A DNA stretch of 64,000 bases from a bacterium (GTDB lineage: Bacteria; UBA8248): contig OZ244799.1 in NCBI GenBank assembly GCA_965219955.1, positions 1,760,001 to 1,824,000 on the forward strand. Reading direction: 5' to 3'. Within the stretch, counting starts at the first letter, position 1. Each line of letters begins with the position of its first letter. The notes under the pieces were generated by a model. It searched no databases. It was not told where the DNA came from and saw nothing but the letters and a program-made list of their open reading frames with translations. The position numbers were made by a program, and so were the translations under genes. Positions 11,882 to 23,506 of this stretch are shown here, piece by piece.

Positions 11882-13546
11882 TTACCTGTGCGCTCCGAAC
11901 GCCCCGATGAAGGCGGCGTCTCCTCCAGTCCCGGTCAGCTTGTTAACGTAAAACGTCCCGGCAACAGAGCCCGGGAGTCCAGGCGTATATGAAATTGCTT
12001 GTGTGTCTGCAGCACCATCAACAACCACCCTTGGAGCTTCAACCCTTTTGTCTCTTCTCATTCCAAAAAACTGGCCCTTCCAAGCGCCATTGTAGGCATT
12101 TCCTTCAACCACGCCCGCAGCGGTGCCGCCCGTAAACGCAGCTGTCAGATCATCGGTTAGAGCCTGTTCCTGCAATTCAATGCTCCCGTCAATGCGTATT
12201 CCGCCAGCTGTTATGTTCGTGACGTTACCCCCGATTTTACCCGAGCCCGTTCCACCTGCATCCTGGAACTCGGCCGTGAGCGAAACGTCCGCCTTCAAAA
12301 AACTGGCCTTCCCGTCCGCTAGGTACGCGCCGTTCGCATTCCCTCGATACGTGTAGCTCTTGTCCGTATCATCGGCGAGCACCGTGCTGATCAAATTTAA
12401 CCCTGAAGTCGCCGAACAACTCCTGTCGAGCGAAGTGGAGTCGGTCACATCTGTGGCGCTGCAGAAGTTATGCGTAGCCACAATCGGCTGATTCCCATAC
12501 GCAAAGGCTTGAATCGAAGGGGTGGCGCCTGAGTCATCAAGCCAGATTCCGGCCAGCAAGTAATCGGGGTCGTCTTGATATACGTATCTCTCATCGGCGG
12601 GGGTATCGGGAGTATTGTCTACGAGTTGCCCGGCCGCAATGCCGGCTCTCACCCGGCTGGATACCGCAATATCCGTATAGGCATTGGCGAAGCGGCCATT
12701 ACCGTCTTTCAGGTCGAAACCCTGATGGAGACGTCCGGGGTTAGTGATTCTGCCCGTTTTACTGTGCGACGGAACTGCCGTTCCTTCGACCGTTATCGTA
12801 ACCGCCAGGACTCCTCTGTCTGTATTTGCGGGTATCGGATAAACCGTTCCATCCCCACTCGTATGGTACGGATAAGTGGCCTGGTTGGCGCCTGACGCCG
12901 TCCCGATGTTTCCATTGGGAATGGAAGCATCGGTCAATGGCAGGAGAGCATCGTATACTTTCCTGTTGTCCCTCACATGCTTGATGAGCGAGGACCCGCC
13001 CGTCTGGGCGGCCTCGTCCGCCTCCCGTTGTCTACGAGCTTCCGCAACCGCATTAACGGCGTTCAGGATGGACGTCACAGCCGATTGCGCGGTTATCAGG
13101 TCACCACGCGCCGTCCTCGCGTCATTCAGAGCCCGCTCCGCCTGCGCAGGCGTGGTGGCCACGTTCGCCACGCCGCTCGCGGTTAAGATACCCGCCAGGG
13201 CGTCTTCCGCGGCTGCGACATTCGCGTTCGCGTTTGCTACCTGTGTAGCCGTTGCGTCGTCGTGGGCCCGCACCGCCGCCGCCGCTGAGCGCGCCGCCTG
13301 CACCCGCGTCCGGGCGTCTGTGACGATGTCGTCGAGATCATCCTGCGCTTCGGCGATCAATTCCGCATCCGTCGGTGGCGGATCCGTGCAGTTCGGGTAT
13401 GTCCCGACCTGACCCTGCGGGCATTCCATCACAGGCGTCTCTTCTTCCATGGCGCTGCCACCGCCACCGCCGCCGCAACCGGAGGCAAATGCCGCAATGC
13501 TTACAGCAAATACCACCAAACCCAAATACCTGAGCATTCTCATCAT
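11882..13546 (-). CDS. Surface lipoprotein, TbpB-like C-terminal beta-barrel (Slam-substrate-like)
   Basis: Lipobox FASG-C then poly-Gly; Ala-rich helical stalk; C-terminal G.W.GQFFG...VAGTF...FIGAFGA. Confidence 0.75.
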   Translation of the reverse strand: MMRMLRYLGLVVFAVSIAAFASGCGGGGGGSAMEEETPVMECPQGQVGTYPNCTDPPPTDAELIAEAQDDLDDIVTDARTRVQAARSAAAAVRAHDDATATQVANANANVAAAEDALAGILTASGVANVATTPAQAERALNDARTARGDLITAQSAVTSILNAVNAVAEARRQREADEAAQTGGSSLIKHVRDNRKVYDALLPLTDASIPNGNIGTASGANQATYPYHTSGDGTVYPIPANTDRGVLAVTITVEGTAVPSHSKTGRITNPGRLHQGFDLKDGNGRFANAYTDIAVSSRVRAGIAAGQLVDNTPDTPADERYVYQDDPDYLLAGIWLDDSGATPSIQAFAYGNQPIVATHNFCSATDVTDSTSLDRSCSATSGLNLISTVLADDTDKSYTYRGNANGAYLADGKASFLKADVSLTAEFQDAGGTGSGKIGGNVTNITAGGIRIDGSIELQEQALTDDLTAAFTGGTAAGVVEGNAYNGAWKGQFFGMRRDKRVEAPRVVVDGAADTQAISYTPGLPGSVAGTFYVNKLTGTGGDAAFIGAFGAHR

Positions 13547-13726: not shown

Positions 13727-15430
13727 TTACTCGGCCTTCCACGAACCGAACGCGCCAATCAGGCTCATCTTGCCATCCTGGGTGGACGCGCCGAAGGTGC
13801 CGGCTGCGGTCGTCGGGAACGTGGCTGCTACTACGCTCGCGGACGCGCCTGTCCGGGCGGCTGGACCGTATACCTGGCCTCCATACGTGCCACGGAAACC
13901 GTTTCCGCCGAGAACGCCGTCCGTCATGCCTGAGAACGTTCCTTCAGCAGCGATGTCGCCTCTCATCAGCCCCAGGGTGCCGTCAACAGCCTGGCCGGCG
14001 GCCCTGATGTTCGAAATGCTCCCCGAAATCTTCCCACCTACATTCGTTGCTCCGCCGAAGTCGGCCTCGAGCGTGGCGTCTGCGTCGAAGTACTGAACCA
14101 TTCCGCCCGCGGAGTACAGGCCGTTCGCGACGCCGTTATACGTGGCCGTACCCGAGAGTGCTGGTACAACAGCGAATACCTGGCTGCCGTAAGCGAATGC
14201 ACCTGCCTGGGCGTCTAAATTAGTGGGAGCGGGATCCGGGATGGAGTCTCTGATGGAAGCTTGTACCCACATGCCCCAGGCCAGGTAGTCTCCGTCCACA
14301 TCATCTTCTGTCGTCTTCGCATGCGAGATCTTGTAGCCTGAAACCGTTGTAACCTTGCCGTCTTCATCCACGCTGATGGCGCAACCGGCAGTGACGGCTG
14401 AAGGGCAGTAAATCTCGCCTGACCGGGGCGCGTTGTTATCAGTGGGAACTGCGTTGTAGGAAGCTACGAAGTCGCTCCCGTCATTCGGAACATCCCCTGT
14501 GATAACACTGTTGACGGAAATGTCAGCGTCACCCGCATCCTGTGTGTAAGTATCCTTTTTCGTCGTTGCTTGAATGTCCGTGCTGACGACGAGCTGAGCT
14601 TTTACTTCGTTAGCGGTTACTACGCGCAGCAGATCCTGACCTTCCCAGTTTCCCTTGGTATGGAAGCGTGAAGGTGTTTCACCCTGCAGTAAAGGGTTTC
14701 CAGAGCCATGTTCGAGCGTAAATGTGGAACCGCCCGCCTTGTGCACGACTACTGCCGTGCCTGATGTTCCATTTATCGTAACCTGAGTGTCTGTGCCGCT
14801 CATACCGCCCTGGTTCGTAAAACCATCAGCAAAAGCAGCAGCATTATCTGCGGCATCCGTTATTGCGGCGCCCACGTTTTTCGCATTGTTAACTTCCTTG
14901 GGCACGTCCGTACCGTCCAGCGTGGCATTATCGATGTCGTCGCCGTTGAGCCTCTTGTTCGACAGCATGATGAGCCCGAGGCCAGTCGTGCCGGCCGCAT
15001 CCTCTGCCTTGCCCTGGGCCGTCTCGGCCGCCATCTGGTGTCCCATGGCGTCCGCGGAAGTCGTTGCCGCCTGCGCAGCCGTGTTGGCTTCAGCAGCCAT
15101 TTTCGCGTATCCGTATGCGTTGCTGGCCGCCACGGGGTCCACCGCGCCGCCCACTGCCGCCATCGCCGCCGTAGCCGCCGCTGCCGCTGCGCTCTGCGCG
15201 CCGCTCAGGGCCATCTCTTCGGCAAGATCCGCAGCGGAGGTGCAAGAACCGTCCGCGTTATACCGGCCGCCGTCACCCTCGCACATTTCCTGCGCGGTGG
15301 GTTCCGGCATGGCGGGCGGTTCCTCTTCCACGGCAGCCGATCCGCCGCCGCCGCCGCAACCCGCCAGCGTCAGCGCGAAGGCGGCCGCCAGCATGAATGA
15401 AAAGATTTTGTTGCTGGTGAGTTTCATCAC
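13727..15430 (-). CDS. Surface lipoprotein, TbpB-like C-terminal beta-barrel, paralog
   Basis: Lipobox LAG-C then poly-Gly; Ala-rich stalk; shares DYL..G.W, AFAYG.Q, TY.G.ANG.Y and GAFG with the neighbour; RBS AGGAGG. Confidence 0.75.
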   Translation of the reverse strand: MMKLTSNKIFSFMLAAAFALTLAGCGGGGGSAAVEEEPPAMPEPTAQEMCEGDGGRYNADGSCTSAADLAEEMALSGAQSAAAAAATAAMAAVGGAVDPVAASNAYGYAKMAAEANTAAQAATTSADAMGHQMAAETAQGKAEDAAGTTGLGLIMLSNKRLNGDDIDNATLDGTDVPKEVNNAKNVGAAITDAADNAAAFADGFTNQGGMSGTDTQVTINGTSGTAVVVHKAGGSTFTLEHGSGNPLLQGETPSRFHTKGNWEGQDLLRVVTANEVKAQLVVSTDIQATTKKDTYTQDAGDADISVNSVITGDVPNDGSDFVASYNAVPTDNNAPRSGEIYCPSAVTAGCAISVDEDGKVTTVSGYKISHAKTTEDDVDGDYLAWGMWVQASIRDSIPDPAPTNLDAQAGAFAYGSQVFAVVPALSGTATYNGVANGLYSAGGMVQYFDADATLEADFGGATNVGGKISGSISNIRAAGQAVDGTLGLMRGDIAAEGTFSGMTDGVLGGNGFRGTYGGQVYGPAARTGASASVVAATFPTTAAGTFGASTQDGKMSLIGAFGSWKAE

Positions 15431-15649
15431 TTTGAGTCCTCCTAGTCTCGTGACATTAAAGAGCTTTGCAACAGAAAAAACCTGAAGTGTCTGGATTTGA
15501 CCTCCTTTCTTTGACTTTCCGATATTTCTTGTCCTATCCGTTATCGGGCTTCTATCGTTTATCGGGCTTATGCCGTTTCATCGAGCCTGGGGCCTGAGCG
15601 CGCGGCCGCCGGCCCGGACTCCCGCGTCCGGGCCGGTAGCCGGCTTATC

Positions 15650-16175
15650 CACGAGACTGGTGTGGGATTCTTGGCGCTCATCATGATGGTTAGAGTCCTC
15701 CAGCCCCGTGCTATGAAAACTTCCCAGGTTCCAGCGAATCTTTCAGCCTCCTTTTTTCAGGCGCCTCCGGGGGTTCCGCGTTCCCGGAAGCCCCGGCGCC
15801 ACGGCCACGGCTAGCTAAAGAAAGCGCCGGGCCGATCCTTGGATTCGGTTCACGAGGCTGGAGAGGGATTTGTGGCGCGGTGCTTCCTGGGTTGAGTCCT
15901 CTGGCCTCGTGATATCTGCTGCTCACCCGGCTCCCGCCGGGCTTTTCGTCTTTCTTCGGGACCGGAGCCGCCGCTTGTACGAACGGGAGAATCCGGGCCT
16001 TTACCTGATTCGGTTCACGAGACTGGAGAGGGATTTGTGGCGTGGTTCATCATGAGTTGAGTCCTCTAGCCTCGTGATAGTTCATCTTCCGGCTTCCGCC
16101 GGGCCTTACGCTTCACGAGACTGGAGGGGGGATTCGCGGCGTGGTTCGCCTCGGGTTGAGTCCTCTGGCCTCGTG
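15650..16175 (-). repeat. Array of four 61-62 bp imperfect palindromic repeats
   Basis: Units at 15650-15710, 15851-15911, 16016-16076 and 16114-16175; + strand consensus CACGAG(A/G)CTGG..GGGATT..GGCG..GAGTCCTC..GCC(T/C)CGTG. Confidence 0.9.
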
Positions 16176-16362
16176 ATGTTTGCTGCTGAAGCCCGGCGTC
16201 TTTCTGGTTTCTGGGTCGTCGTCTTCCGGGCTTCGCCGAGCCGTCTCGGAGAGCGTTGTTCAGCCGCCGGGTTCCCGCCTCATCCGGCCATCGCGGCGTG
16301 ATCCGCGTTGCGTTGAGCGGGCGGCCCTGTAAGCAACTGCTCTCGTGTATTACTCGGCATTT

Positions 16363-16395
16363 ATGATAGTGCGGTAAATATTCCGCTTTTGTCAA
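16363..16395 (-). promoter_or_regulatory. Sigma70-like promoter with an operator-like palindrome in the spacer
   Basis: TTGACA (16395-16390); CACTAT at 18 bp or TATCAT at 21 bp; GCGGTAAATATTCCGC at 16371-16386. Confidence 0.5.
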
Positions 16396-16498
16396 CCCTT
16401 TAATTGAACTTGCGCGCAACTCTTGTGCAGGCGTCCATCGCGCGAGTATGACCGAACCCGCGCGGGTTATCAAACGGGAGGGGGGAATGGGCGTTTGA

Positions 16499-17063
16499 GG
16501 GGGGTGTTGAAAAGCCCTGACCTGCCCCCGCAAACCGCCAACGCCTCATTCCTCACCCTGAGTAGCCGCCAAAGGCGGCGTATCGAAGGGCGAGGAGAGT
16601 CGAACGCCTCGCGCCGGGTGAGAGCAAACACTCATTCATCAATCGCGTTTGACCTTCGATACGGCGCTTTCGCGCCTACTCAGGATGAGGAGTGTCGGGG
16701 AACGGCGGAGCCTGTCCCGAGCGAAGTCGAGGGAGCCTGTCCCGAGCGAAGTCGAGGGACCGCTACTCAGGATGAGGCGGTGTGGTTTTGTTCGCAATCC
16801 CGTTGCCGTCATTCCGGCGAAAGCCGGAATCCATTTTCGCCTTTGTCTTTGGCCTTTCGCCCGGCCGTCCTCTCTCCCGGCCGGGGAAGATACGGACGTC
16901 GCCATGTATATCCGCCTCATCCGTTCCGGATTCGGGCGCGGCGCTCCCTACCGCGAGTCAGAATCAAATGCGAAAACGAAAGCAAAAATCATAAAATGGA
17001 TTCCGGCTTTCGCCGGAATGACGGCGGTGGTCAATAACGAGTGAGGGGGACTTTTTCCACCCC
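16499..17063. mobile_element. Composite MITE carrying nested REP-like units
   Basis: GGGG.GTTGAAAA-type termini; contains CTCA(C/T)CCTGAGTAG, CCTGTCCCGAGCGAAGTCGAGG x2 and a CGTCATTCCGGCGAAAGCCGGAATCCA pair; related inverted copy at 61289-61735. Confidence 0.75.
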
Positions 17064-17237
17064 TCCCCCGTCCCGCTCGACCCCATTTTCACGGATTCGT
17101 CATAAACCCCGCCTACCCCCCTTCCCGCCGTTGTTGTAAGATGTCTCTCCCGGCCTTTAGGACGGCGCGGGACTTGTACCCGCATTTGTATGCCGCCGCA
17201 CCGAAGGCCGGGGCTTCATGGATTGGGAGATACCCAG

Positions 17238-18209
17238 ATGGCCTCCCCGCCGGAGCTTCCCGAACGCCTCCTGGTCGCCGTGGGCGGCAACGCGACCCAC
17301 CCGCCCGAGATACGCGGCACGGCCGCCGAACAGGCCGCCATCGCCGCCGCCACGGGCCGCGCGCTGCTCCCGCTCTTGCAGCTAAAAAACGAACTCATCA
17401 TCACGCACGGGAACGGCCCCGTGGTCGGCAAGATCCTCATGCGCCAGGCCGTCTCGAGCGAGCAGGTGACGCCGATGACGCTCGACATCTGCGTCGCCCA
17501 CAGCCAGGGGGGCATCGCCTACCTCCTCATGCAGGCGTTCGAGAACGCGCTCAGGCGCGCGGGCGACCCGCGCCACGTGGTCTGCCTCCTGACGCAGGTG
17601 GAGGTCGACCCGGCGGACCCGGCCTTCGACGCGCCGACCAAGTTCGTGGGCTACACCTACACCGAAGAAGAGGCGAGGCGGTATGAGCGCGAGATGGGCT
17701 GGACTTTCAAGCGAGACGGCGGCCGGGGCTGGCGCCACGTCGTCGCGTCGCCAAAGCCCAAGCACATCGTGGACATCTCGCTCATCGAGACGATCGCCAA
17801 GAGCGGTGCGGTCGTGATAGCGGGCGGCGGCGGGGGCATCCCCGTCGTGAGGGAGGCCGACGGGGCGCGCCGGGGGCTGGCCGCCGTCATCGACAAGGAT
17901 TTGACGTCGGCGCTCATGGCGAACGTGCTGGAGATCAAGACGATGATGATCCTGACCGCCGTGCCCCGGGTGGCCGTCCACTTCGGGACGCCCGAGCAAA
18001 GAGAGCTGACGCGCGTCTCCCTCGACGAGATCAAGAGATACCACGCCCAGGGCCACTTCCCGCCCGGCAGTATGGGCCCCAAGATAGAGGCGGCGATCCG
18101 CTTCCTCGAGGGCGGCGGCGAGCGGGTGCACATCGCAGCACTCGAGGACGCCGTCCCCGCCCTGAGGGGGGACGCGGGGACGTGTGTGTATAGGGTCAAA
18201 CGCGATTGA
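17238..18209 (+). CDS. arcC: Carbamate kinase
   Basis: VAVGGNA, THGNGP.VG, SQG.I.Y, PTKFVG, VV.SP.P, GGGGIPV, VIDKD and GSMGPK. Confidence 0.93.
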   Translation: MASPPELPERLLVAVGGNATHPPEIRGTAAEQAAIAAATGRALLPLLQLKNELIITHGNGPVVGKILMRQAVSSEQVTPMTLDICVAHSQGGIAYLLMQAFENALRRAGDPRHVVCLLTQVEVDPADPAFDAPTKFVGYTYTEEEARRYEREMGWTFKRDGGRGWRHVVASPKPKHIVDISLIETIAKSGAVVIAGGGGGIPVVREADGARRGLAAVIDKDLTSALMANVLEIKTMMILTAVPRVAVHFGTPEQRELTRVSLDEIKRYHAQGHFPPGSMGPKIEAAIRFLEGGGERVHIAALEDAVPALRGDAGTCVYRVKRD

Positions 18210-20152: not shown

Positions 20153-21887
20153 CCCGGATATTTCACCGAGGCTTTGGAACGGCCTGATTTGAAGTCGTGG
20201 ACGGCTTGATTCGGGAGGCGGCCTTCTTCGTCGGCGCGATACGATGACGCACGGCGCCCGAGCGGCGCTTTTTCGTCGATTTCGAAGGCTTTCGGGGAGT
20301 GCCGGCCGACGCGCAGGCGCAGGTTTCCCGCTGCGGCAACCTATGTCGCTCCGATTCTACGCTCAGTCACTCTCCCCCGCCGTCGGCCAGGGCGGGTGCG
20401 TACGCAGGTTGTTCACTACCTTTTCGAAGAGCGCCGCATGGGGCCAGGCCTCGGAGATAGACAGCCGGACCTTGCGCACGCTGACCCTCACGCGGGCGCC
20501 GATCTTGAGCAGTTTCAGCCGGATCGTTGCGCACTGGGCCCTGGCGCATGTCGTGCCCGCCAGCCCCAGGCGCCGGAGTCCGTGCATCAGGACGTAGGCG
20601 AAGGAGGCGAAGTAGAGCCGCAACTGATTGGCCCTCATGGTGGCGCTGCTGGTGCGGTCGGCGAACAGGCCGAGTTGCTGTTCCTTGATGCGGTTCTCCA
20701 TCTCTCCCCGGGCGCAGTAGAGTTCTTCGTAGAGGCGTCTGGCGCCGGCCCGCCGGGGGCGGAGATTGGTGACCACGAACCGCGGGTTCGCCCCCCTGGG
20801 CAGGTATTGCGCCTTGCCCACCACCCGGCGGGTTCTGGACCAGCTCTTGCGCGTTCGATAGCGGAAGTCGCGATACCGGCGCGCCGGCTCACCCGTGCGG
20901 CGACAGACGACCTCGGCCCGGTAGAGGTCCCGGCCAATCGCCCGCACCAGCCGCGCGTTGCGCGCCATGCCGAACACGTAGCCGACGCCGTTCTCCTCGC
21001 ACCAGCGCATCAACGGCTCGCGGCAAAAACCCGAGTCGCCGCGAACCACGACCCGCGTACGCGGCCAGCGCCTGCGGACCTGCGCCACGATCCGCGCCAA
21101 CTCCTCCTCGCTGCCGGCCGAGGCGTCGACGTTCGAGCGGCGCAGCCGCGCGCACAGCAGATGCGCGCCGCAGAAGACGTAGAGCGGCAGATAACAGTAG
21201 CGGCCGTAATAGCCGTGGAAGAAGCGCCCCTCCTGGCGACCGTGCAGGGGGTCGTCCGTGGCGTCGAGGTCCAGCCATATCTCTTCGGGCGGTTCGGCGT
21301 AAGACTCCATGAACACGTCCACCAGCAGGCGGTCCATCGCCTCGAAGTCCGCAGCGATGCGCTTGTAGCGATCCGTCGCCGCCTCGGCGCCGCCCAACTC
21401 CAGGCGGTTCAGCGTACTCGATGCGGCCAGCGGAGAGCCGCGGTCCCGAAGGCGAACCCGCCCGGCTCCCGTCAGGTCCCGCTTGCCCACCAGCAGCGCC
21501 AGCAACCTGTCGCGGCGCAAATCCTCGTGGTCGTTCAGGTCCTCGTAGCCCAGCGCCAGCGCGTACACCCGCTGCGCCGCCAGCGAGCGCACCGGGTGCT
21601 CCACGCTGCCGGGCTTGCGGCAATCACGAAAACACCGCGCCAGACGAGCCATCAGACCCAGGCGGAGATCCGTCTCGCGAAGCAGCACCCCGCCGGCGTC
21701 CGACGTGATCCGTCCGCCGTCGAATCGGGCGATGACCTCGCGTCTTCCGTGGGGGTGAAAGTGAAGTTGTTCCGGTGTACAATGCGTATCCATGGGGCCT
21801 CTCTGTCGGACGGGTGTAAGTTATTGAGACAACTCACATTATCCGACATTCAGAGGCCCCATGCCATTTGTCGGTGAAATATCCGGG
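20153..21887 (-). mobile_element. IS1380-family insertion sequence
   Basis: Perfect 17-bp TIR CCCGGATATTTCACCGA; TTAG direct repeats at 20149-20152 and 21888-21891. Confidence 0.92.
20363..21793 (-). CDS. IS1380-family DDE transposase
   Basis: FDGG.ITSDAG, GYEDLNDH, LDLDATDDPLHG.QEG, RGDSGF and Y.ARGEMENRIKE. Confidence 0.95.
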   Translation of the reverse strand: MDTHCTPEQLHFHPHGRREVIARFDGGRITSDAGGVLLRETDLRLGLMARLARCFRDCRKPGSVEHPVRSLAAQRVYALALGYEDLNDHEDLRRDRLLALLVGKRDLTGAGRVRLRDRGSPLAASSTLNRLELGGAEAATDRYKRIAADFEAMDRLLVDVFMESYAEPPEEIWLDLDATDDPLHGRQEGRFFHGYYGRYCYLPLYVFCGAHLLCARLRRSNVDASAGSEEELARIVAQVRRRWPRTRVVVRGDSGFCREPLMRWCEENGVGYVFGMARNARLVRAIGRDLYRAEVVCRRTGEPARRYRDFRYRTRKSWSRTRRVVGKAQYLPRGANPRFVVTNLRPRRAGARRLYEELYCARGEMENRIKEQQLGLFADRTSSATMRANQLRLYFASFAYVLMHGLRRLGLAGTTCARAQCATIRLKLLKIGARVRVSVRKVRLSISEAWPHAALFEKVVNNLRTHPPWPTAGESD

Positions 21888-21891
21888 TTAG

Positions 21892-23506
21892 CAGCCTGTC
21901 GGGCTTTGGCCTGCCAAGGAGTTCGAAGCACCAATCGTGGGAGTGATTTTCGGGGTTCTTCTCGGTAATCGATTCTTGTTGGCCGGCGATTCGGTGTCAG
22001 GAGCCATGATCGGCCCTCACAGGCCCGGTGGGAGTCATAGCGGCCGGCAACAGGCCACGGGACGAGGGCGTTTATCCTCCGATCACGCCGACTTCAGGTT
22101 GTGCAGACGCTTGCAGTTATAAGCCAGCATCACCAGGACCCACTCGCCCTGCACCTTCTCGAGACCGCGCAAGAGGAACTGCCGGAAGCCCATCGCCTGC
22201 TTGACGATGCCGAACACCGGCTCCACCGTCTGCCGCCGCAGGCGATAACGGGCGCGCTCTTCCGGCTTCGCCATCTTCGCGCGCATCGCCGCAATCCACT
22301 CCGCTCGAACTTCCGGACCTGGCCGGGAAGCCACCGGTGGCCGGAAGTCGTGCCGACGGCGCCCCCCTTCGGCTTGCGTGGCCACCAGAACCTCGACGCC
22401 CCGTCTCTCGAGTTCTTCCACTTCGCTGCCCGTCGCGTAGCCGCTGTCCGCCAACACACGCGCCGGCGCGGCAACCGAAGGCGGAATCGCCTCCACGTCC
22501 GCCACCAGTTCCCCGCGGTCGCTCGCGTTGTTGCTCACACGCGCTCCCAGCACCAACTGGCTGCCTTCGGCATCCACCACCGCCTGCGCGTTGTACGCCT
22601 GGCGATACTCGTGACGCTTGCTCTTGCGCATCAAGGCGCTGTCCCCATCCGTCAGGTTGATCTGCCGCCCCTCTTCGGGCTTCTCCCGAGGGGGCTTGAT
22701 GCGCGGACCCTTCCTCCGACCTGAACGGCGCTCCCGAGACGCCGCCTTGCGTTCATATTCCGCCCGACCCGCCTCGGCCGACCTCTTCGCGCGGCGCTCC
22801 AGTTCCGCGCACGCCGCATCCAGCTTCGACTTCAACTCCTCGCGACGCGCCAACTCCTCCGGCAGCGCCTGCGGATCCCCTACCTCCTGCGCATCTTCGC
22901 TCTCCGCACGCTCCAGCAACTCCTCGACCTCTCCGCGCAATTGAGAGCCCAACGCCTGCGCACGGTCATACCGGACGTTGTTGTGCTTGCTCGCGTTCGC
23001 GTCCACCTTCGTCCCGTCCACGCTCACCGTCCCGACCCGCAACAACTTCAACTCCTTCGCCAGCAGCAAAACCTGCTCGAACGTCTCCGCTATCGCCTCG
23101 AAGTTATCGCGACGGAACGCGCAGATCGTGTCGTGGTCCGGGTGTGTGTTCGACGCCACGTATCGAACCCCGATATCCCGGTACGTCGCGCGCTCGATCC
23201 GGCGCGAACCGAATATCCCGTTCGCGTAGCAGTAAATCAGCAGCGCCAGCATCATCCGGGGATGGTACTGCGCTGAACCCGTGCCGCGCTCGTTCACGCG
23301 GAATGACCCCAGAGGCACCCGTTCCACCGCCTCCACTACGAAGTGCGCCAGATCGTCCTCCGGCAACCACTCCCGCATGTCCACAGGAAGAAGATACAAC
23401 TGCGACTGATTACAATCTACAAACTTCGCCACCCCAATCCCCTCCCTTAAAAATACCTCGCGAGAACGACATATTATAAAAGGTAGGGCCTAAGTCCGAC
23501 AGGCTG
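21892..23506 (-). mobile_element. IS1182-family insertion sequence
   Basis: 20-bp TIR CAGCCTGTCGG(G/A)CTT(T/A)GGCC (18/20 match); TTAG flanks at 21888-21891 and 23507-23510. Confidence 0.9.
22083..23432 (-). CDS. IS1182-family transposase
   Basis: LLP....WLPEDDLA, YHP.MML..L.Y.Y..G, PDH.TI..FR, DGTK..ANAS, ADSGY and R.QTVEPVFG.K. Confidence 0.93.
   Translation of the reverse strand: MAKFVDCNQSQLYLLPVDMREWLPEDDLAHFVVEAVERVPLGSFRVNERGTGSAQYHPRMMLALLIYCYANGIFGSRRIERATYRDIGVRYVASNTHPDHDTICAFRRDNFEAIAETFEQVLLLAKELKLLRVGTVSVDGTKVDANASKHNNVRYDRAQALGSQLRGEVEELLERAESEDAQEVGDPQALPEELARREELKSKLDAACAELERRAKRSAEAGRAEYERKAASRERRSGRRKGPRIKPPREKPEEGRQINLTDGDSALMRKSKRHEYRQAYNAQAVVDAEGSQLVLGARVSNNASDRGELVADVEAIPPSVAAPARVLADSGYATGSEVEELERRGVEVLVATQAEGGRRRHDFRPPVASRPGPEVRAEWIAAMRAKMAKPEERARYRLRRQTVEPVFGIVKQAMGFRQFLLRGLEKVQGEWVLVMLAYNCKRLHNLKSA

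Follow-up and report, generated by a model that had tools for sequence, protein, structure and literature searches.

Why should a bacterial gene be preceded by several near-copies of its own start region, each of them part of a hairpin? This question is raised by a 64,000-nucleotide (nt) stretch of DNA from an uncultured, sponge-associated bacterium of the UBA8248 lineage (GenBank assembly GCA_965219955.1, contig OZ244799.1, positions 1,760,001 to 1,824,000), referred to here as the window. The genome under study, G000, is one contig of 4,283,615 bases (4.28 Mb). All coordinates are window positions, and the gene strand is the minus strand of the window, on which four hairpin units (15640-16178) lie upstream of a rapidly changing gene for a putative surface lipoprotein (lipoprotein gene 1, 13727-15430). 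The element that these units form is real, conserved and restricted to one genus. We favour, with moderate confidence, the view that the units are modules of a structured, cis-regulatory 5′ leader of about 0.9 kb, in which their 3′ arms would serve as anti-sites to the ribosome-binding site (RBS), with their 5′ arms as decoys of it. The leader probably controls the amount of lipoprotein made.

The repeat units and their distribution

A repeat search of the window identified a single family of direct repeats with four copies of 73 nt (15641-15713, 15842-15914, 16007-16079 and 16106-16178), which are 60-90% identical to the reference copy and have start-to-start spacings of 201, 165 and 99 nt. 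The family corresponds to four hairpin units of about 62 nt on the minus strand, separated by spacers of about 140, 104 and 37 nt, which agrees with an earlier, sequence-only reading of this DNA that had described four units of 61-62 nt. The same reading had proposed that the inverted ends pair into a stem and that CCGGGCC lies beside every unit. Both points are borne out: the arms read TCACGAG... and ...CTCGTGA, the units fold on the gene strand with energies of -20 to -29 kcal/mol, and GGCCCGG (CCGGGCC on the plus strand) occurs about 10-25 nt after each unit. A profile search of the whole genome matched the units at only these four places, with E values of 3e-21 to 8e-18, the next match having an E value of 0.15. 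The unit array is a real pattern and is confirmed not to be a chance one.

A covariance model was built from 38 units and searched against 42 genomes of the family. Unit arrays were found in 12 of them, namely G000 and 11 of its 22 congeners, all belonging to one genus, and in none of the 19 genomes from eight other genera. Among these 12 genomes there are four units in three, three in eight and two in one. When more diverged units were sought in the other congeners, a threshold of E ≤ 0.5 gave only weak matches of 17-19 bits. BLAST searches with the stretch of about 1 kb between the gene and its upstream neighbour likewise found it in 11 of 22 congeners, at 69-94% identity per segment, and not in 18 more distant genomes. 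A scan for the exact pattern in one genome per species, covering 185,579 species, returned 10 loci, all in array-bearing congeners. The corresponding scan of metagenomes returned three loci: one contig (L077) has three units and the other two have no match to the model. Since the metagenomes contributed only L077, no deeper alignment for covariation was available.

In all 12 genomes a lipoprotein gene whose start region does not vary lies downstream of the array. Together with the metagenome contig and three single units in G014, one of them beside a frameshifted gene, this gives linkage to a lipoprotein gene at 16 of 16 loci, so that there is no sign of a genome-wide spread detached from lipoprotein genes, which the sequence-only reading had named as a check on its proposals. 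The divergent upstream neighbour is a gene of the amino-acid-kinase family in G000 and at eight of the nine other loci checked for synteny.

G014 is the most divergent of these genomes, and its three extra, single units are themselves diverged, scoring 30-33 bits. They are found at 773-842 of L061, 1234-1310 of L062 (minus strand) and 798-870 of L063, 24-100 nt upstream of other lipoprotein genes whose lipobox consists of Cys followed by a Gly run. Two of the three contain a GTG-started open reading frame (ORF), KKRAAKPPPVP*, and in the third, next to the frameshifted gene, the start has been lost. In extended folds of these units the C-rich arm pairs with G-rich sequence adjoining the Shine-Dalgarno sequence of the main gene. 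The DNA of one of them matches elsewhere solely the part coding for the signal peptide and the canonical units.

The closest relative of a unit is found in another genome for 33 of the 38 units. The proximal units, described below as type B, form a clade with 100/99 support across 11 genomes, and orthologues of the most distal unit of G000 occur in five further genomes, in a clade with 93/94 support. The array therefore predates these species, every position in it having been retained. Over aligned columns the leader is 71-95% identical to that of G000 (59% in G014), whereas the coding sequence of the lipoprotein has a nucleotide identity of 47-71%, and the 360 nt upstream of the promoter have an identity of 42-53%, which is the random level.

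The real translation initiation region of the lipoprotein gene (15425-15453) consists of TCACGAGACTAGGAGGACTCAAA (15453-15431) followed by GTG at 15430 and ATG at 15427, and its 29 nt, from TCACGAG up to and including the start codons, show no variation among the 12 genomes. As the sequence-only reading had noticed, the 5′ arm of the units, which on the gene strand reads ATCACGAGGC(C/T)AGAGGACTCAA, is a near-copy of TCACGAGACTAGGAGGACTCAAA, and the 3′ arm, CCC(T/C)CTCCAGTCTCGTGA, is the complement of the first part of TCACGAGACTAGGAGGACTCAAA. One difference is fixed: a position that is A in all 12 real sites is G in all 38 decoy (5′) arms, and the base opposite it is U in 31 of 35 distinct units. 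In type A units, the Shine-Dalgarno run is also one G shorter than that of the real site. The units are evidently derived from the start region of the lipoprotein gene. One stem position of the type A units (15841-16178 in the window) alternates between C and U, in 17 against 17 of the distinct units.

The four units of G000 differ in detail. The most distal, u4 (16104-16178), lacks a start codon (GGCG variant), and of the four 3′ arms it is the one predicted to make the best anti-site. The next, u3 (16006-16079), contains a mini-ORF at 16053-16015, which encodes MMNHATNPSPVS*, and is identical in G011. Unit u2 (15841-15914) has lost its start codon, having AAG where G011 has ATG, and its 3′ arm has C where the other units have U. 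The proximal unit, u1B (15640-15713), is of type B, which is present in 11 of the 12 genomes, and has an upstream ORF of 38 codons (15684-15568) that crosses the GC-rich hairpin described below. Both u1B and u3 contain ATGATG, and the short ORFs read from the sequence at the outset, MMSAKNPTPVS... and MMNHATNPSPVS*, are indeed there.

Structure of the leader

The units lie inside a leader of about 0.9 kb that extends from a putative promoter to the lipoprotein gene. A consensus scan found two promoter-like sites, compared with 0.3 +/- 0.5 in shuffled sequences. It listed P1 (16445-16473, minus strand; TTGATA-17-CATACT), the hexamers of which are conserved in the 12-genome alignment. A second site on this strand, P2 (16363-16395), consists of TTGACA at 16395-16390 and CACTAT at 16371-16366, separated by 18 nt. 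Its TTGACA is invariant in all 12 genomes, and its -10 hexamer is weak (3/6), so that the scan did not list it. Both sites are oriented toward the lipoprotein gene. Between them, and preceding P2, is a palindrome (16407-16422) with the core TTGCGCGCAA (16410-16419), which is conserved in 12 of 12 leaders and duplicated in G014. The genome contains 15 copies of this 10-mer; extended by the TTGACA hexamer, it is found at this locus only. The palindrome is a candidate operator, at which a regulator may act. The alignment of the 12 genomes is good from the gene start up to the TTGACA block, and nothing aligns further upstream.

P2 is directly upstream of the first covarying helix. The first 170 nt or so after the promoter (16189-16358) are predicted by RNAalifold, using the 12 genomes, to form a 5′ domain, in which a closing helix pairs 16358-16353 (GCCGAG) with 16240-16235 (CTCGGC) and is followed by a hairpin (16233-16189) with a conserved loop. 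In the closing helix, a pair that is U-A in seven genomes and C-G in five is followed by one that is A-U in six, G-C in three and G.U in two. The covariation score of this helix is 0.216, compared with 0.169 +/- 0.013 in shuffles, and none of 500 shuffles reaches it; 92% of its cells are paired, compared with 29-48% when the partners are slid.

The spacers, which have gaps of many lengths in the 12-genome alignment, contain hairpins of their own. Those at 16089-16102 (CCGGC-GGAA-GCCGG) and 15927-15940 (CCGGC-GGGA-GCCGG) have GNRA tetraloops when read on the gene strand, and the orthologues of the latter have the loops GGGA, GCGA, GAAA and GAGA. Counted over the 12 leaders, 14 of 18 hairpins of the form CCGGC-N4-GCCGG have GNRA loops (GGGA 5, GGAA 3, GCGA 2, GAAA 2, GAGA 2), whereas on the other strand GNRA is read in just one of 30, taking all tetraloop hairpins together. 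Closer to the gene, an inverted-repeat search identified a conserved GC-rich hairpin (15603-15642, minus strand) with an 11-bp core and a 6-nt loop whose sequence is free to vary. One-sided changes in its stem give G.U or U.G on the gene strand. The type B units behave in the same way: in them, as in the GC-rich hairpin, a change on one side of the stem leads to G.U on the gene strand. One pair is G-C in seven cases, G.U in three and A-U in one, and 85% of type B pairs are standard on the gene strand compared with 67% on the other strand. For the unit stems as a whole, 86% of positions pair, against 36-54% in slid controls. Imperfect helices with G.U and A.C are present in the units.

Between the GC-rich hairpin and the gene, about 70 nt upstream of the gene start, there is a Shine-Dalgarno-like sequence, GAAAGGAGGT (15500-15509, minus strand), which has no start codon behind it and is a perfect complement of 10 nt of the 3′ end of the 16S rRNA from G000. 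At the start region itself, a local hairpin is predicted, together with a flanking GGUUUU:GAAACU helix that has one compensated pair. The covarying 5′ helix, the GNRA spacer hairpins, the G.U-type substitutions and the orientation of the promoter all support the view that the element would act as RNA of the gene strand.

RNA contigs were matched to the stretch at a likeness of at least 85%, using metatranscriptomes labelled as sponge and coral metagenome. Three runs from two studies hold leader contigs (X1 and X3 are from one study). Contigs of X1 (15653-16304), X3 (15746-16297) and X2 (15638-15811) lie over the array, and further contigs of X1 (15315-15607) and X2 (15347-15609) bridge the start codon. 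They demonstrate presence in RNA libraries and are consistent with co-transcription of the leader and the gene start, and no more than this is claimed for them. No RNA contig lies over 16384-16524, and the X1 and X3 contigs end at 16304 and 16297; these ends are no guide to the transcript start, since missing coverage is no proof. The contigs break at the GC-rich hairpin (15607 / 15653 in X1, 15609 / 15638 in X2), which could be either an assembly effect or a processing site. A joint from 15671 to 16015, out of register with the units, is seen in X1 and faintly in X3.

Predicted pairing with the start region and the alternatives

The complementarity of the 3′ arms to the start region, already pointed out in the sequence-only reading, was evaluated by duplex prediction. 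The 3′ arms of the four G000 units are predicted to form duplexes of -19.5 to -27.4 kcal/mol with the real start region. That of u4 prefers the real start region to its own 5′ arm (-27.4 vs -22.0 kcal/mol), while that of u2 prefers its own 5′ arm (-24.9 vs -19.5 kcal/mol). Over all 38 units the mean is -23.3 kcal/mol, compared with -10.1 kcal/mol for a shuffled start region, and for 29 of the 38 arms the predicted binding to the real site equals or exceeds that to their own 5′ arm. In each genome one or more units favour the real site, the margin being 1.9-6.6 kcal/mol. When the full leaders were folded, a unit 3′ arm was paired, in the minimum-energy structure of 12 of 12 cases, with 11-14 of the real site's 15 core bases, and the ensemble probability of this pairing was 0.63-0.93. 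Pairing of the real site with the 3′ arms is a prediction of these folding models, and a switch built on it is an inference.

The sequence-only reading had offered three models: a cis-regulatory leader of decoy and anti-RBS hairpins, recombination sites of a system that docks lipoprotein cassettes, and scars of deleted paralog starts. The first is the best supported of the three, with units placed between a promoter-like site and the gene, a constraint on the leader stronger than that on the gene, and 3′ arms most of which favour the real start region. The second is not supported and the third does not fit, for reasons given below.

On the first of these models, the leader would be transcribed on the gene strand from the conserved promoter at about 16395-16363. 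Each unit would supply a 5′ arm that resembles the start region and has its own Shine-Dalgarno sequence, in most units a start codon, and a 3′ arm that acts as an anti-site. A leader with n units would then have n anti-sites for n+1 strands resembling a ribosome-binding site (n decoys and the real site), so that one strand stays unpaired, and it is this strand that would choose whether ribosomes load at the lipoprotein start or at a decoy mini-ORF. During transcription the local hairpins would form first, so that the real site stays open; the predicted equilibrium is a state in which an anti-site has captured it. In this way the leader would determine the translation of the mRNA and probably also its lifetime. 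Candidate triggers are the load of ribosomes on the mini-ORFs, temperature, or a factor.

Several points weigh against this model. The element is absent from 11 of the 22 congeners. The covariation to which the sequence-only reading had looked within the unit stems is not above that in shuffles (0.094 vs 0.092, a value reached by 156 of 500 shuffles); the stems vary too little to be informative on this point. In the distal type A units, pairing is equally good on both strands (87% each), and for most units the opposite strand gives the more stable fold, because conserved A.C mismatches of the gene strand become G.U there. The RNA contigs are unstranded, and RNA libraries can contain DNA. Folds of RNA of about 0.9 kb are unreliable, and here they are degenerate. 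When the real site is omitted from the fold, only 25 of the 38 units close on their own arms, and folding therefore lends no support to a kinetic ON state. Because the 3′ arms share descent with the start region, their complementarity to it is no independent proof of function, and since the real site is invariant, its pairing with the 3′ arms is outside the reach of covariation.

The genes served by the leader have a bearing on what it might do. Lipoprotein gene 1 encodes 567 residues, with a lipobox, LAGC, that was read from the translation and is followed by a Gly run; its downstream partner, lipoprotein gene 2, is an ORF of 554 residues (11882-13546, minus strand). No Pfam match was found for lipoprotein 1 at E ≤ 1 besides a weak one to DUF7510, and there was no sequence match in the PDB. 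Neighbours of residues 330-567 in a protein atlas carry PF01298 (TbpB_B_D) with a score of 0.94, which we take as a lead only. The genome contains five paralogous pairs of adjacent lipoprotein genes, at about 1.63, 1.775, 2.36, 3.30 and 4.27 Mb. The leaders of the four other pairs share the GAAAGGAGGT element and the GGAGGACTC start region with this leader; hairpin units were found in none of them, the best match scoring 4.5 bits (in L075), nor did nhmmer find any genome-wide.

The leader of G011 is 95% identical to that of G000, yet over residues 47-627 the G011 protein has an identity of 92% with the paralog that G000 carries at 3.30 Mb, so that its body matches that paralog and not the G000 gene at the unit locus. 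Yet other bodies are found in G016, in G008/G022 and in G002/G012, and body lengths in other species range from 510 to 949 residues. The shared part of the protein ends at about the lipobox and Gly run (G000 13727-15430 compared with L013, L019, L015, L020, L016 and L018). From these alignments, the exchange of bodies looks like gene conversion into a conserved expression site: the leader is conserved while the bodies differ, and the leader and signal-peptide start therefore behave as such a site.

Combining this with the pairing model leads to a more specific proposal, to which we give only a low probability, namely a self-timing switch with n+1 competitors at a conserved expression site. A new mRNA would be born translatable, because the local hairpins form first, and would later inactivate itself by strand exchange, in which an anti-site captures the real site and a decoy mini-ORF is freed. 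The number of units would set the timing. As control would be carried wholly by the leader and the signal-peptide start, lipoprotein bodies could be swapped by gene conversion with regulation intact. If the competition model is true, it represents a new way of building a graded or timed translational switch from duplicated parts, and it would illustrate how a bacterium can change the surface protein that it makes from a regulated site and yet retain that site. The element is short and self-contained, and would be amenable to work in vitro although the organism is uncultured.

The mini-ORFs suggest a different explanation, in which ribosomes translating, or stalling on, Pro-rich peptides (M-x-H-A-x-x-P-x-P-V-S) would reshape the hairpins, the array being a set of tandem sensors. 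A short leader ORF with its own Shine-Dalgarno sequence, as is typical of leaders with upstream ORFs or translational attenuation, is present in 31 of the 38 units: ATG follows GAGGA by 8-11 nt in all 11 type B units and in 20 of the 27 units of type A. The ORFs of 18 type A units have 11-12 codons and the form M(M)xHAxxPxPVS, with a TGA stop located in the 3′ arm; that of type B (11 genomes) has 33-47 codons and extends through the GC-rich hairpin. The stop is retained as TAA where TGA has been lost (G014_2), changes of synonymous type are seen (CAC/CAT, GCC/GCA, CCC/CCA), and the two GTG-started ORFs among the single units of G014 keep the same shape at their places immediately upstream of other lipoprotein genes. 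It is thus plausible, judging by their sequences, that the mini-ORFs are translated. Against control by the peptides, a start codon is lacking in seven of the 27 type A units, six of which belong to one conserved orthologous group, and another two units have a shifted frame. There is variation at all three positions of the loop codons, and conservation of the peptide is confounded with pairing, because the Pro codons are also a reading of the C/U-rich anti-Shine-Dalgarno arm. We consider it unlikely that control works through the mini-ORFs and their peptides.

The Shine-Dalgarno-like GAAAGGAGGT leads to the next alternative, that the leader stabilises or processes the mRNA: hairpins and Shine-Dalgarno-like sequences would guard an abundant surface-protein mRNA against decay that depends on the 5′ end, or would provide RNase sites, and there would be no switch. 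Of the 12 copies of GAAAGGAGGT in the genome outside rRNA genes, seven are the one here and those upstream of six other lipoprotein paralogs. An element complementary to 16S rRNA, recurring in this position with no start codon, resembles the STAB-SD idea (PMC12970973), and RNA libraries cover the leader to an appreciable depth. That the 3′ arms have remained complementary to the real site is not accounted for by this explanation. Moreover, the leaders of the paralogs have the Shine-Dalgarno-like element without units, and the units therefore add something else. Stabilisation of the mRNA has to be taken seriously, either as a rival or as an additional function; a leader that does this and has no switch is in our judgement rather improbable.

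A third possibility is that the hairpins titrate a translational repressor, or another RNA-binding protein, that recognises the hairpin of the start region. The array does supply several copies of a hairpin like that of the start region, and the invariance of the 29 nt at the real start could reflect such recognition. The protein best known for being titrated like this, CsrA (PF02599), was not found in a search of the one-contig genome, in which control genomes were positive, and there is no candidate protein gene among the conserved neighbours. We regard a protein decoy as improbable, and a CsrA-titrating or CsrA-controlled RNA in particular as rejected by the PF02599 search.

The opposite strand might instead encode small RNAs, each consisting of a unit and the GC hairpin that follows it and acting as a plus-strand antisense RNA against the start region. 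The greater stability of type A folds on the plus strand is in its favour, as are terminator-like hairpins with T-rich tails on that strand at 15926-15941 and 16181-16198. Such terminator-like sites number three, compared with 1.8 +/- 1.2 in shuffles, and their T-rich tails are not conserved elsewhere; the loops are GNRA on the gene strand only, and the type B units and the GC-rich hairpin pair worse on the plus strand. No promoter-like site on the plus strand was found within or beside the array, the sole plus-strand match of the scan being at 15497-15526 and none being apparent in the 12-genome alignment. Antisense RNAs of this kind are very improbable.

That the units are functionless remains of gene-start duplications, a view close to the scars of paralog starts mentioned above, would fit their derivation from the gene start and a copy number that ranges from two to four. 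Neutral remains would hardly have left a leader far more conserved than the gene and the flanks, units that are positionally orthologous across species, most of them closest to a unit in another genome, and hairpins and spacer tetraloops that have been maintained; we give this view very little weight. Least credible of all are recombination sites of a cassette system acting at the DNA level, which would suit the differences in gene body between species, including the G011 body that matches a different G000 paralog, and are disfavoured by the position of the G011 switch in the mature protein, just after the lipobox and Gly run and not at the units, by the lack of an integrase or recombinase as a conserved neighbour (G000 and nine other loci), and by constraint of the RNA type.

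The units fit none of the following known classes; the sequence-only reading had likewise not recognised them as CRISPR, attC, REP or a riboswitch. A dispersed repeat, either a miniature inverted-repeat transposable element or a repetitive extragenic palindromic (REP) sequence, is rejected on account of the four local copies in 4.28 Mb and of strong matches confined to a single locus in all 12 positive genomes. A clustered regularly interspaced short palindromic repeat (CRISPR) array is rejected by copies that are only 60-90% identical and by spacers of 37-140 nt that are conserved between species; no Cas families were seen among 20 ORFs at 5-26 kb of the window. An integron attC or cassette array is rejected likewise, since the neighbouring genes, in G000 and at the nine other loci alike, include no integrase, and the spacers contain conserved hairpins. 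Rfam gave no matches at E ≤ 1 on either strand of positions 14000-18000 of the window.

Two features lie further upstream of the leader. At 16525-17090 there is a block of inverted and tandem repeats, with 56-nt arms at 16805-16860 and 16970-17025 and a 25-nt tandem repeat at 16707-16756. Contig depth over this block is very high in all four runs compared, up to thousands, with many alternative joints, and the block is probably a dispersed REP-like element. Two genes for DDE transposases are found on the minus strand 4-7 kb upstream of the leader, at 20363-21793 (PF13701/PF01609) and 22083-23432 (PF01609/PF05598). No counterparts were seen at the other loci within the 3-5 kb or so of upstream sequence that was scanned.

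Comparison with known systems

In the translational attenuation of ermC and cat, a leader ORF with its own Shine-Dalgarno sequence overlaps alternative stem-loops that govern the main ribosome-binding site. The units share with these systems a short ORF with its own Shine-Dalgarno sequence, and alternative stem-loops are predicted for them. They differ in that the module is repeated two to four times, at up to about 0.7 kb from the gene, that the strand competing with the real site is nearly a copy of it, that some units have no ORF, and that there is no known inducer. In RNAs of the CsrB/RsmZ type, repeated hairpins with a Shine-Dalgarno-like GGA mimic ribosome-binding sites. Here, in contrast, the genome has no CsrA, GGA is in the stem rather than the loop, and the element is the leader of an mRNA.

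Three further systems resemble parts of the element. In Salmonella, the upstream ORF mgtQ, of eight codons, releases the ribosome-binding site of mgtB (PMC8092293). The likeness is that of a very short ORF (8 codons in mgtQ, 11-12 here) in a structure that sequesters a downstream ribosome-binding site, which here is predicted; mgtQ, for its part, is one ORF just upstream of its target, with no tandem array and no copy of the target site. The thermosensor of meningococcal fHbp has two anti-RBS sequences, inside the coding region (PMC4999090). It thus resembles the element in having more than one anti-ribosome-binding sequence for the mRNA of a surface lipoprotein, which here is predicted, and differs in the location of these sequences within the coding region and in having no decoy copies of the RBS. 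STAB-SD of cry3A is a Shine-Dalgarno-like sequence with no start codon, far upstream in a long leader (PMC12970973). Its likeness to this leader is confined to the element at 15500-15509 and does not extend to the hairpin units, and a stabilising effect here would be by analogy.

In Rfam and in our full-text searches of the literature we found no description of a conserved tandem array, far upstream in a leader of about 1 kb, in which each module consists of a copy of the real site and an anti-site. Control by pairing between a ribosome-binding site and an anti-site is itself well known. The element is best understood as a new version of translational control through RNA, in which the mechanism, as we infer it, would resemble that of translational attenuation leaders, of upstream ORFs that unmask a ribosome-binding site, and of the anti-RBS control of fHbp.

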